Of a stretch of DNA of 64,000 nucleotides, positions 15,422 to 27,211 are shown piece after piece (position 1 is the stretch's first letter; every line of letters begins with the position of its first letter). The stretch lies in sequence record MZ189262.1, one strand, 5' to 3'. This DNA is from Escherichia phage W143. The notes under the pieces are model-generated. The model had not been told where the DNA came from and did not search any database. It saw only the letters and a list, made by a program, of their open reading frames with translations. Position numbers and translations under genes: made by a program.

Positions 15422-15829
15422 TCACTCAATTTCAATTTTACTAAATACACAGAATATGATTGAACAGACTACATAAGCGCCACACACGGATTGAACTAAT
15501 ACCATCCCAAAGAACCAAACAATATTATCAAACAGTGTCTGTTTTACGTCGAAAGGACGTAAACTTACAGTAATATTATCACCTTTTTCTATTGAAGAAT
15601 ACATCTCTGGTGAAATATATTCACTAAATCTATAACCGTCTTTAAGTTCATATACGGCAATAAACGATAAACTAGACCCTTTTCCTTGTGTTCCTGTAAT
15701 GGTATTAACTACAGTAACATCATAATCTTTATAATGCATATAATCATTAATTGCGTAATAACCGTATGCAACTACTACACATAAACAACATATCAATAAA
15801 TTCAATCTTTTAATTATCAACTGTTTCAT
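15422..15829 (-). CDS. Hypothetical membrane protein (135 aa)
   Basis: Hydrophobic helices near both termini. Confidence 0.5.
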   Translation of the reverse strand: MKQLIIKRLNLLICCLCVVVAYGYYAINDYMHYKDYDVTVVNTITGTQGKGSSLSFIAVYELKDGYRFSEYISPEMYSSIEKGDNITVSLRPFDVKQTLFDNIVWFFGMVLVQSVCGAYVVCSIIFCVFSKIEIE

Positions 15830-22865: not shown

Positions 22866-23252
22866 TTATTCGAGGGAAAGAAGATACTTACTCTGGTAAA
22901 ACATTCCAGTAATATCATCTATCGTGCTTTGAATGGCTGGAGGCATTTCTTTGTAAATGCTGTTAGATTGGTCTAGTATACGATCAATCATTTTAATTGT
23001 GTCGGTAGGAAGTTTACTAGCATCTGGAATTGAAGGTGTGTATTTTCTACCAGAATACCCCAAATACTGCTCACCAAATTTATCAATCAAATCTGGCAAC
23101 TCAGAGAAAATAAAATCGTATGCTTTGTGTCTAGCATAACTTTTAGTTTCAAAATGCGCAGAATGAAAATAAGCTTGCGCAGCCATTAATAAACCTAAGT
23201 ATTCATCTGCCTTTGAAGGTTTTCCACTTTGTGAAAAGTCGCTGAATTTCAT
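22866..23252 (-). CDS. Hypothetical protein (128 aa), position of T4 rI.-1
   Basis: ORF with 4-nt overlap with the rI stop. Confidence 0.5.
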
Positions 23253-23542
23253 TCAGTCTCCAATTTAATGTTCATAATTCTAGCGTATGATTGTGCCATC
23301 TCCGCGCCTCGTTCTATACATTCAAAATCGGAAGAGCACGGGTCATTTTTATAGGTTGTTCGCATGAAACTATAGAACTGTTCAGATGATTCTACGCTTT
23401 TATTTTCAAAAAGCATATAAACATGTCTAATACCAGATTCCATAAATTTATCAAAATGAGGATCGACATTCGCTTCAATCGGCGGAGATAAAACAAACGC
23501 TAATCCTAGCATGGCGAATAATGCCGCTGCTTTTAAGGCCAT
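23249..23542 (-). CDS. rI: Lysis-inhibition regulator rI
   Basis: 97 aa; N-terminal signal-anchor MALKAAALFAMLGLAFVL; matches my recollection of T4 RI. Confidence 0.85.
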   Translation of the reverse strand: MALKAAALFAMLGLAFVLSPPIEANVDPHFDKFMESGIRHVYMLFENKSVESSEQFYSFMRTTYKNDPCSSDFECIERGAEMAQSYARIMNIKLETE

Positions 23543-25157: not shown

Positions 25158-25360
25158 TATTCTTCAACATGCTTTTTACGACCTTTCTTATCGATAAAGG
25201 TGTATTCCATAAAGCGACCAAGATATCGTCTTTCAACGTTATGAGGAGTATTAATAGGACACTTAGTCTGGCGAATTTCTTCCCATTCACGAATAATGAC
25301 TGCTTTATTCTTTGGGTCATACGGATGTGGATAATGTATATTCATAATAACGGTTCCCAA
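25133..25360 (-). CDS. Hypothetical protein (75 aa)
   Basis: ORF. Confidence 0.45.
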   Translation of the reverse strand: MGTVIMNIHYPHPYDPKNKAVIIREWEEIRQTKCPINTPHNVERRYLGRFMEYTFIDKKGRKKHVEEYCMQVTWL

Positions 25361-25809
25361 TTAACAATCACAATTTCTAATTTAGAGGAATATGTATCTA
25401 AAATCCCCTCAATAATATCCCAGTTCCCTTTACCTATGCCTGCACCAATCCTAGGCATATAGATTGTAGGTTTAATCAGTTTATTTTCACCAAACTCATT
25501 TAATTCTAACATACAATTCATTAAAGCGGAATACTCAAAATTTGGCCCTGGTTGAAATTGAGTATAAAGATTGAAGCAGTAAGCTTTATGAGTCCTAAAG
25601 TATTTTTCATAGACTGAGTAAAAACCGAGTTTAGTTACATCGCCCCATTCTGTCTGTAATTTATCAGCTTCCAAAATTTTAGGGAAAGCTTTGGTTAATT
25701 GACCCGCTACGCCTGAACCCATAGTATGAAAACAATTGCATCCATGCGCAATATTTTTACCTTCAGCGAAAAGGGCGACAATATCGCCCTTGATATATTT
25801 TACAATCAT
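25342..25809 (-). CDS. Macro-domain-like protein (ADP-ribose binding/processing), 155 aa
   Basis: GDIV..AHGCNC..MGSGVAGQ and PRIGAGIGKG resemble the two glycine-rich macro-domain loops. Confidence 0.55.
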   Translation of the reverse strand: MIVKYIKGDIVALFAEGKNIAHGCNCFHTMGSGVAGQLTKAFPKILEADKLQTEWGDVTKLGFYSVYEKYFRTHKAYCFNLYTQFQPGPNFEYSALMNCMLELNEFGENKLIKPTIYMPRIGAGIGKGNWDIIEGILDTYSSKLEIVIVNWEPLL

Positions 25810-26147
25810 CTAGTACTCAATCCTCGATTATAAGAATCTACCAAACGGTCAACCATTGAATGACAAGCGGCTTTATCTTTCTCCTCCGCAACTGAACATT
25901 CTAAGGTATTCCACTTTTTAGCATATCGTTTTAACAATGTATCATTTTTATATCTGCTTGATTTATCTCTTTCTCCGTCTTTATATGCATATATTAATTT
26001 CTGCGCAAATTCAGCTTGGCATGCTTTATTTTTCCCGCAATAATCCGCGGCAGTACGGTTTACATACTCTCTAATTTCAGTATATGATGTATTTGCTAAC
26101 GCAGAAAATGAAATTAATCCTACACATAAAACCAAAATTTTAGTCAT
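25806..26147 (-). CDS. Secreted cysteine-containing protein (113 aa)
   Basis: N-terminal signal peptide MTKILVLCVGLISFSALA, four cysteines. Confidence 0.5.
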   Translation of the reverse strand: MTKILVLCVGLISFSALANTSYTEIREYVNRTAADYCGKNKACQAEFAQKLIYAYKDGERDKSSRYKNDTLLKRYAKKWNTLECSVAEEKDKAACHSMVDRLVDSYNRGLSTR

Positions 26148-26685
26148 TTACTATTTCCAACAGTTTATTATTTTTAAGGTAGTTAGCCTTTTCTAGGACT
26201 TCAGAAGCATATTTAGAACCTGCTTTAACATTCCATCCCGAATTATAAGAGGATATTGCCTTTCTTATATCGCCCTTATGTATATTTAACCAATAAGAAA
26301 GTTCAATGTACGCCCAGGAAGCTGAATTGGACCGTTTATTCAACATTCTTTTTATTTCGGCATCGGTCATATTATAACCAAGTTCCTTAACTCTTGCTCG
26401 CATTGTCGGCAAATAATTTTGGAACATTCCATAGGCATGATGCTTTGGTTTAGATTTTAAATTAACTCCGGCAGAGCTTTCTTGCCATAAAATAGCAGCC
26501 ATTATATGACCTAATCCGCTCTTGTGGATATTTTTGTGTGTTTTATATTTTCCATCCTTAGAAAATTGTTCCCCGAATTGATACGCGTAACGCATGTTAT
26601 CGAGTTGGACATTACTGAAAGTATGCTCGGAGCTATGTGCCATCATAGAAATGGCCAATAGACCAGCGAGTAGTGCTTTTCTCAT
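26140..26685 (-). CDS. Secreted lytic transglycosylase-like protein (181 aa)
   Basis: Signal peptide MRKALLAGLLAISMMAHS; motifs WQESS, AYGMFQ, YNSG. Confidence 0.6.
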   Translation of the reverse strand: MRKALLAGLLAISMMAHSSEHTFSNVQLDNMRYAYQFGEQFSKDGKYKTHKNIHKSGLGHIMAAILWQESSAGVNLKSKPKHHAYGMFQNYLPTMRARVKELGYNMTDAEIKRMLNKRSNSASWAYIELSYWLNIHKGDIRKAISSYNSGWNVKAGSKYASEVLEKANYLKNNKLLEIVND

Positions 26686-26692
26686 GCTTACC

Positions 26693-27154
26693 TCATTGAG
26701 TTTTAATTACTGCTTTAGAAGCCTTTCCTGGTAAACGACGACTGTTGATAATTGCCATCCTGCACTGAAGTGACGGGTCTTTGAACTTCGCATTAGGTTT
26801 ACAAACTGTAAATCCAAGCCAAAGATTTCCATCTGTGATTTCTAAACGTCCAGGACGATATTCAACCCCATCAATAAAATCCTCATCAATGTCAGGACGT
26901 GGAGGCATACTCAGGAATTCATTAACTTCTAAAACGTGGTCTTTTATTTTATGGAATAATTCAAAAACATATGTCTCATCAATCTCCCGTTGAATTGCAC
27001 GATCAAGAAGATGCTGAGAATATTTTAGATGAAACGATGAGACCCCTGCTGCTTTTGATGCCTCACGAATCTCATTGTTAATTTGGCGAAACTCCGACTC
27101 AAAGTGACGACGGAGCTTATTTCGACGGATAAAAACTTCTGTGTTGATAGTCAT
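26693..27154 (-). CDS. regB: Endoribonuclease RegB
   Basis: 153 aa starting MTINTEVFIRRNKLRRHFESEF, matches my recollection of T4 RegB. Confidence 0.85.
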   Translation of the reverse strand: MTINTEVFIRRNKLRRHFESEFRQINNEIREASKAAGVSSFHLKYSQHLLDRAIQREIDETYVFELFHKIKDHVLEVNEFLSMPPRPDIDEDFIDGVEYRPGRLEITDGNLWLGFTVCKPNAKFKDPSLQCRMAIINSRRLPGKASKAVIKTQ

Positions 27155-27181
27155 GTTATTCTCCTCTTAACTGATAGAAAA

Positions 27182-27211
27182 ATTATACCATAGTCAAGAG
27201 GAAAAGTAAAC
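27182..27211 (-). promoter_or_regulatory. Early promoter GTTTAC-N18-TATAAT upstream of regB
   Basis: -35 at 27206-27211, -10 at 27182-27187. Confidence 0.6.

Follow-up and report, generated by a model that had tools for sequence, protein, structure and literature searches.

The early genes vs.1 and vs of T4-like phages: a predicted exported murein glycosidase next to an annotated valyl-tRNA synthetase modifier with a predicted signal peptide

Bacteriophage T4 is usually credited with two murein-cleaving enzymes, the endolysin e and the virion lysozyme gp5 (PMC7650644). For the first of the two phage genes discussed here, the closest described systems outside T4 are the family-1 GH23 enzymes Slt70, MltC, MltD, MltE/EmtA and MltF of Gram-negative bacteria, together with small, specialised and secreted transglycosylases that are each recruited to one particular transport machine across the envelope, namely EtgA of type III secretion systems, VirB1, P19/Orf169 of F-like plasmids and IpgF/IagB. 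For the second gene, the available analogies are T4 Spackle (gp61.3), Ivy, MliC and PliG, all of them small periplasmic proteins made with a signal peptide that act on a murein-cleaving enzyme, with Spackle being helical. Spackle is also phage-encoded and early (PMC7650644). Here we describe an analysis of 64,000 nucleotides of Escherichia phage W143 (sequence record MZ189262.1), a stretch that we refer to in its full length as the window, and in particular of the adjacent genes vs.1 and vs, both of which are known and named in T4, so that the novelty of the genes themselves is low. Taken as a whole, our results make it probable that vs.1 encodes an exported transglycosylase and vs a second exported protein, and that the two genes are expressed early and in a coupled fashion. 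The initial annotation of this locus had proposed two early genes with Sec signal peptides, one of them coding for an enzyme of the lytic transglycosylase type; the signal peptides, the SLT type and the early unit all stand, but the named genes vs and vs.1 had gone unrecognised, and the SLT similarity was already in print. What the initial annotation missed is the more surprising half of the locus, namely that one of the two predicted signal peptides sits on a protein that is annotated as modifying valyl-tRNA synthetase.

The window is a Tequatrovirus genome. With a 1.9-kb query around the locus, 656 phage records were matched, and the identity was 95-99% in 493 of these. The two open reading frames (ORFs) lie on the minus strand exactly where they had been placed, at 25806..26147 (113 aa) and 26140..26685 (181 aa). 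In a comparison with the T4 reference, the former is T4 vs (97% identical, at the same genomic position) and the latter is T4 vs.1 (99% identical, with G72A as the single substitution). T4 Vs.1 (UniProt P13311, NP_049725; PHROG 600) has the same neighbours, with regB upstream and vs downstream, and we see no difference of substance between it and the Vs.1 of the window. The window copy of vs carries a 2-aa deletion and three substitutions with respect to T4, all of which fall within the predicted signal peptide and leave the mature region identical. The features on which the argument rests are the following.

26140..26685, minus strand: vs.1, predicted to encode a periplasmic lytic transglycosylase of the GH23/SLT type (precursor of 181 aa)
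26632..26685, minus strand: predicted signal peptide of Vs.1, residues 1-18, MRKALLAGLLAISMMAHS, with predicted cleavage between AHS and SE (heuristic and family-wide conservation)
26476..26481, minus strand: E69-S70 of Vs.1, motif I "ES", with the predicted catalytic glutamate
26419..26430, minus strand: G86-M-F-Q89 of Vs.1, motif II, equivalent of GLMQ
26236..26247, minus strand: Y147-N-S-G150 of Vs.1, motif III, equivalent of AYNxG
25806..26147, minus strand: vs, encoding a small protein with four predicted helices (precursor of 113 aa), annotated as valyl-tRNA synthetase modifier
26094..26147, minus strand: predicted signal peptide of Vs, residues 1-18, MTKILVLCVGLISFSALA, with predicted cleavage between ALA and NT
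25863..26039, minus strand: stretch of Vs that contains its four invariant cysteines (C37 at 26037-26039, C43 at 26019-26021, C84 at 25896-25898, C95 at 25863-25865)

The match of Vs.1 to the Pfam SLT model (PF01464) is just over the gathering threshold (23.4 bits for a cut-off of 21.3, E=4.8e-5), and the same model is matched at E<=0.01 by 26 of 29 Vs.1 homologues, with a best value of 1.3e-7. The family is a large one, with 77 clusters at 40-99% identity and relatives found by tblastn in 2,084 phage records, and it spans Straboviridae of many hosts, Ackermannviridae (Salmonella phage heyday, for example) and Felixounavirus (phage tootiki, for example). In ten sequences taken from these three lineages, at 31-100% identity, 21 residues are invariant, and these include E69, G86, Q89, N90, E128, W132, S146, Y147, N148 and G150; E69, G86, Q89, N90, Y147, N148 and G150 are likewise invariant in 29 family members. 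The motifs that had been read from the sequence are indeed there, with ES at residues 69-70, GMFQ at 86-89 and YNSG at 147-150, the last one as part of an AYNxG equivalent that reads S146-Y-N-S-G150. When the Vs.1 profile was aligned by hhalign to the single sequences of Slt70 and MltE, E69 fell on their catalytic glutamate, in QES of Slt70 and in IES of MltE, albeit with non-significant scores, and GMFQ came to lie opposite the GLMQ of both enzymes, again with weak statistics. The model that AlphaFold2 predicts with confidence from the family alignment (predicted local distance difference test, pLDDT, 87.6) has the lysozyme-like alpha-helical SLT fold and places E69 at the end of helix 59-70. 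Overall, we hold it likely that Vs.1 is an exported murein glycosidase of GH23. The transglycosylase assignment, sound as it appears from these comparisons, was nevertheless published by 2006, when Nolan et al. reported SLT similarity of vs.1 in six of six genomes (E 0.012-0.74) and cited earlier PSI-BLAST matches (PMC1524935), and some GenBank and UniRef records of Vs.1 already bear the name of SLT-domain protein. Labels in public records have also drifted, in that other homologues of Vs.1 are called "endoribonuclease", "RegB" or "putative lysin".

Two alternatives concern the chemistry of Vs.1. According to the first, the protein would be a catalytically dead murein-binding protein in which the motif matches are relics, a reading that draws on the marginal Pfam score and on the fact that no activity was ever reported. 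The catalytic glutamate and all substrate-binding motif residues are, however, invariant over about 70% divergence and three phage lineages, which argues for a maintained active site, and we regard a dead enzyme as extremely unlikely. According to the second, Vs.1 would have the same fold and location but act as a hydrolytic muramidase, of the kind of goose-type lysozyme or EtgA, and leave reducing ends at N-acetylmuramic acid (MurNAc). Both activities do occur within GH23, and the sole match of the 29-sequence Vs.1 profile among the sequences of the PDB is in fact a goose-type lysozyme, at a marginal E=0.33; single-sequence searches of solved structures gave nothing meaningful for Vs.1 or Vs, and NCBIfam gave no match to either. 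Goose-type lysozymes carry a second catalytic carboxylate after the catalytic helix, and EtgA has a second catalytic Asp, whereas in the corresponding hairpin of Vs.1 (residues 70-88) no Asp or Glu is conserved across the family. The combination of ES, GxxQ and YNxG, moreover, is the set that belongs to family-1 transglycosylases. The missing acidic residue favours, in a suggestive manner only, a lytic transglycosylase with a single carboxylate, and we consequently lean towards a transglycosylase rather than a hydrolase and consider a muramidase unlikely.

With respect to the family-1 bacterial enzymes, to which it is only 13-20% identical, Vs.1 differs in several ways. It consists of the catalytic domain alone, without additions of the superhelical, LysM or ABC type; it has no lipid anchor, unlike the lipoproteins MltC, MltD and MltE; and it is phage-encoded and early. 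The invariant N90, T94, E128 and W132 set it apart as a subfamily of its own, and no envelope-spanning machine or partner is known for it, in contrast to the EtgA and VirB1 group.

Evidence for export comes from the N-termini of the two proteins. Both show the three-part organization of a Sec signal peptide, MRK followed by ALLAGLLAISMMA and by AHS before SE in Vs.1, and MTK followed by ILVLCVGLISFS and by ALA before NT in Vs. As a heuristic, we asked for an N-terminal region that is positive and devoid of acidic residues, for an uncharged stretch of 10 residues or more that contains a hydrophobic core, and for small residues at positions -3 and -1. Only four of the 169 ORFs of at least 60 aa in the window pass it, namely vs.1, vs, the antiholin gene rI (23249-23542, minus strand; PHROG "lysis inhibition"), whose known export makes it an internal positive control, and an ORF that looks more like a membrane anchor (15422-15829, minus strand; 135 aa, PHROG 2547 of function not known, with a long hydrophobic N-terminal segment MKQLIIKRLNLLICCLCVVVAYGYY...). 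Residue-shuffled ORFs pass in 1.3% of cases, and the occurrence of two adjacent ORFs that pass is therefore not due to chance. The same features were seen in all 29 sequences of the Vs.1 family and in all 12 of the Vs family, in spite of the drift of the N-terminal sequences themselves, and a signal-peptide-like segment begins 10 of 10 Vs.1 relatives chosen across Straboviridae, Ackermannviridae and Felixounavirus. Following cleavage, mature Vs.1 is predicted to start with SEHTFSNVQLDNMR and to be a protein of about 163 aa, 18.8 kDa and pI 9.65, and mature T4 Vs to start with DTSYTEIR.

Other routes and destinations were considered and rejected. A lipoprotein was discarded for both proteins for want of a lipobox: Vs.1 has no cysteine at all, and C8 in the LVLC of Vs comes too early, has a disallowed residue at -1 and is not kept in orthologues. 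Export through the twin-arginine translocation (Tat) pathway was rejected since there is no twin arginine, and a virion enzyme was rejected for Vs.1 since the gene is early and its product has a predicted cleavable leader. A different possibility is that Vs.1 is membrane-tethered or latent, as in a signal-anchor-release (SAR) endolysin or another signal-anchored enzyme, and becomes active only upon depolarisation of the membrane, where it would back up or assist lysis. Phages of Gram-negative bacteria commonly have SAR endolysins, "putative lysin" is the annotation of some Felixounavirus homologues, and Nolan et al. did propose "some role in cell lysis" (PMC1524935). The uncharged stretch of T4-type Vs.1 proteins, however, is only 13-14 residues long, too short to span the membrane when the SAR criterion is about 16-22 residues rich in Gly and Ala, and it is followed by a conserved small-x-small site of the AXS/AXG type. 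On these two grounds a SAR endolysin was rejected; in addition, vs.1 is an early gene located outside any lysis cassette, T4 lysis requires e and t, and vs.1 mutants are viable. We therefore see a SAR-like or otherwise anchored enzyme as very unlikely, and the periplasmic enzyme with a cleavable leader as the better account of these N-termini.

Vs presents a different case, because here the annotation and the conserved features point in opposite directions. The protein belongs to PHROG 1256 (E=7.5e-40), which is named after the T4 annotation (T4 Vs is UniProt P13310, NP_049724, with Pfam PF26829 as the precomputed assignment); no model of our local Pfam library matches it. The predicted structure is a four-helix bundle (pLDDT 75) whose structural neighbours are generic only, and Vs shows no structural or sequence similarity to the known lysozyme inhibitor families Ivy, MliC, PliG and Spackle. 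Across 12 orthologues, down to 27% identity, the sole invariant residues are C37, C43, C84 and C95 along with G58, G109 and L110. In the model, the four cysteines flank the loops between helices 1 and 2 and between helices 3 and 4, at the same end of the bundle, where they could form two periplasmic disulfides or, alternatively, a cytoplasmic Zn(Cys)4 site. Beyond codon 1, the only in-frame ATG, GTG or TTG codons of vs are TTG5, TTG71, ATG98, TTG102 and TTG110, and since none of these is a suitable internal start, a leaderless Vs isoform of nearly full length is unlikely. Predicted mature Vs has 95 aa and 11.0 kDa, as compared to 12.9 kDa for the precursor (13.1 kDa in T4). Full-length Vs with an N-terminal His tag was found to be insoluble in E. 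coli (PMC8076793), a behaviour that fits a blocked signal peptide. The family is under-represented in protein-database searches, which returned eight matches (exhaustive profile search of 1.84 billion representatives) and six matches (word-indexed search); tblastn on phage genomes finds hundreds of records, 795 with the window protein as query and 367 with the orthologue of Acinetobacter phage AC4. Many public records label Vs simply as "valyl-tRNA synthetase", as though it were the enzyme itself.

On the basis of these features we think it somewhat more probable that Vs is exported than that it is not. A name that demands action in the cytoplasm and conserved features that predict export make Vs the true oddity of the locus. 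The conflict could possibly be resolved in three ways: infected cells might export the protein only in part or suppress its export; vs as a genetic locus might have been assigned to the wrong ORF; or Vs might have a periplasmic job, possibly together with Vs.1. With regard to the last, the proposal that Vs is not, or not only, a cytoplasmic modifier of valyl-tRNA synthetase, and that it serves instead as a disulfide-bonded periplasmic partner of Vs.1, such as a regulator, an inhibitor or a targeting partner, is a tentative one to which we would give no more than a modest chance.

Gene order was examined as a further source of evidence on the pair. Seven genera of Straboviridae were sampled, and in six of them vs lies directly downstream of vs.1, at a spacing that ranges from -8 to +7 nt; besides the window and T4, these are represented by Klebsiella phage PhiKpNIH-6 (Marfavirus), LHE83 (Dhakavirus), STP4-a (Gelderlandvirus), RB49 (Krischvirus) and Acinetobacter phage AC4 (Lazarusvirus). 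In the seventh, Aeromonas phage AS-gz (Tulanevirus), vs.1 occurs without vs beside it, and the Ackermannviridae and Felixounavirus examples have Vs.1-like genes and no Vs. When bacterial genomes were scanned for relatives of Vs.1, in a search limited by pattern, one locus came up, on a 178,077-bp contig of a Flagellimonas marina assembly (NZ_JBHSCL010000010.1), where vs.1 is followed by one intervening ORF, by vs (PHROG 1256, E=5.6e-23) and by a tk.4-like macrodomain gene; a PhoH-like gene is present as well, and the contig is probably a T4-like phage or a prophage-like element. The adjacency by itself is weak evidence for a functional pair, given the broad collinearity among genomes of the T4 type and the fact that vs is as constant beside tk.4, which codes for a cytoplasmic macrodomain protein, as it is beside vs.1.

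Data from T4 bear on expression and fitness. Both genes were classed as early at the RNA level and middle at the protein level by time-resolved omics, in which both proteins were detected (PMC9697503). In transposon mapping by HIDEN-SEQ, vs and vs.1 received about 23-27 reads per TA site in liquid LB (Data S3 and S8), as opposed to 179-652 for regB, tk.4 and vs.3. This roughly 10-fold difference from the neighbouring genes, even in rich medium, suggests a shared fitness cost that had not been reported. In M9 glucose, vs was the most depleted gene (log2 fold change -2.19, adjusted p about 0), and vs.1 dropped less (log2 fold change -0.87, adjusted p 0.155).

A number of points weigh against the picture of two exported proteins. 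In the classical work of Mueller and Marchin (1975/1977), Vs is reportedly a factor of about 10 kDa that binds the cytoplasmic valyl-tRNA synthetase, and its in vivo phenotypes in valS(ts) hosts are incompatible with complete export. The alternative that follows is that Vs is what its annotation says, a cytoplasmic synthetase-binding factor whose N-terminus is an inefficient export signal in infected cells, or of which only a part of the pool is exported; the cysteines would hold a structural zinc in a cytoplasmic protein, and adjacency to vs.1 would reflect collinearity. This alternative has on its side the annotation in T4 and hundreds of relatives, the genetics and biochemistry of the vs locus just mentioned, a defect of vs mutants specific to minimal medium that suits a role in amino-acid metabolism or translation, the equally constant neighbourhood of tk.4, and the lineages (Ackermannviridae, Felixounavirus, Aeromonas phage AS-gz) in which Vs.1 homologues do without Vs. 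It has to contend, on the other hand, with the three-part signal peptide and AXA-type site kept by all 12 orthologues to 27% identity, since a canonical signal peptide that is retained while its sequence drifts is a signature of selection for export; with the lack of internal starts for a leaderless form; and with the fact that a factor of about 10 kDa fits the 11.0-kDa mature mass better than the 13.1-kDa T4 precursor, a match that would imply cleavage and hence export. On balance we judge a solely cytoplasmic or mostly cytoplasmic Vs to be a serious contender, though with less than even chances. Turning back to the exported pair as a whole, the signal-peptide calls come from our own heuristic, and cleavage and export are predicted; the similarity of Vs.1 to solved SLT structures is too weak for direct detection, and the hhalign statistics are poor. 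No localisation, cleavage or enzymatic data on Vs or Vs.1, and no remark on a signal peptide in Vs, were found in the literature searched. HIDEN-SEQ, finally, shows that vs and vs.1 are both non-essential in T4, and the low counts for vs.1 could in part be due to polarity on vs, although insertions in regB lack the effect.

If the exported pair is nonetheless accepted as a working model, the sequence of events might be as follows. Both genes would be transcribed early, from a promoter upstream of regB, and their translation would be coupled. The Vs.1 precursor, provided with a cleavable Sec signal peptide, would give rise to a basic and soluble periplasmic protein of about 19 kDa with a GH23 fold similar to that of SLT family 1, in which E69, as a single general acid, would cleave the beta-1,4 bonds between MurNAc and N-acetylglucosamine (GlcNAc) in murein; it would most likely do so in the manner of a lytic transglycosylase and leave 1,6-anhydroMurNAc ends. 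From early or middle infection on, the enzyme would thus make nicks in the sacculus or remodel it, acting independently of gp5, the virion lysozyme, and of the endolysin e, from both of which it is distinct, as had been noted at the outset. Vs would be exported too, as a four-helix bundle of about 11 kDa with two periplasmic disulfides formed by its four invariant cysteines. As for the role of such activity, our best guess is a loosening of the wall by which the phage would gain fitness, in liquid culture as well as in minimal medium, and this could explain the fitness loss of vs and vs.1 mutants under those conditions. For a part in lysis inhibition or superinfection control, as suggested by the initial annotation, we found no evidence on either side.

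Were this model correct, Vs.1 would be a third murein-cleaving enzyme of T4, exported early. Its relatives occur in over 2,000 sequenced phages, which make up three or more lineages of large virulent myoviruses, and it could matter for the growth of infected cells, their resistance or their preparation for lysis. If, beyond that, Vs should work together with Vs.1, T4-like phages would have a conserved early pair for periplasmic wall remodelling, and the decades-old assignment of the valyl-tRNA synthetase factor to the vs ORF would need to be re-examined; the classical "modification" of the synthetase might even arise in part after cell breakage. The predicted signal peptide of Vs calls into question a textbook annotation that has been copied into hundreds of genome records, and it provides a testable handle on the long-unexplained modification of valyl-tRNA synthetase by T4.

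The early unit in which the two genes reside has the order regB-vs.1-vs-tk.4, and its remaining features are given below.

27182..27210, minus strand: early-promoter-like site upstream of regB, GTTTACT, 17 nt, TGgTATAAT (consensus scan, 10/12 matches, extended -10 TG)
26693..27154, minus strand: regB (endoribonuclease), upstream neighbour (Pfam REGB_T4, E=1.4e-68; T4 annotation)
25342..25809, minus strand: tk.4 (macrodomain, AdfM), downstream neighbour (Pfam Macro, E=9.3e-6; T4 annotation)

These genes are tightly packed: the Shine-Dalgarno sequence of vs.1 (TGAGG) contains the regB stop codon, vs.1 shares 8 nt with vs, and an ATGA overlap joins vs to tk.4. A scan found no convincing minus-strand terminator between the promoter-like site and tk.4. 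We infer promoter function for this site from its match to the consensus, and it is the likely start of a regB-vs.1-vs-tk.4 transcript, in agreement with the early RNA class of both genes in T4 and with the early region that the initial annotation had proposed. The T4 orthologue of tk.4 has been named AdfM, an anti-DarTG2 factor (bioRxiv 10.1101/2025.11.20.689424).

The stretch downstream of vs.1 seems to gather exported proteins. In the Salmonella phage STP4-a (L011:1800-2201) and in AC4 (L008:2821-3246), a third protein with a signal peptide is encoded between vs and tk.4; the two proteins (133 aa in STP4-a, 141 aa in AC4) belong to PHROG 4957 and are mutually 30% identical (E=3e-10), and both T4 and the window lack this gene. 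In AS-gz (L007:2917-3357), the position between vs.1 and the tk.4 homologue is occupied by a gene whose 146-aa product carries a leader resembling that of a lipoprotein (...LSVYGC). As a last observation on the unit, the Shine-Dalgarno region of regB carries GGAG, the cleavage motif of RegB, in the context AAGAGGAGAATAAC ATG (region 27154-27210, minus strand), which fits the known autoregulation of regB; further GGAG sites on the minus strand start at 27095, 26987, 26469, 25976 and 25887.

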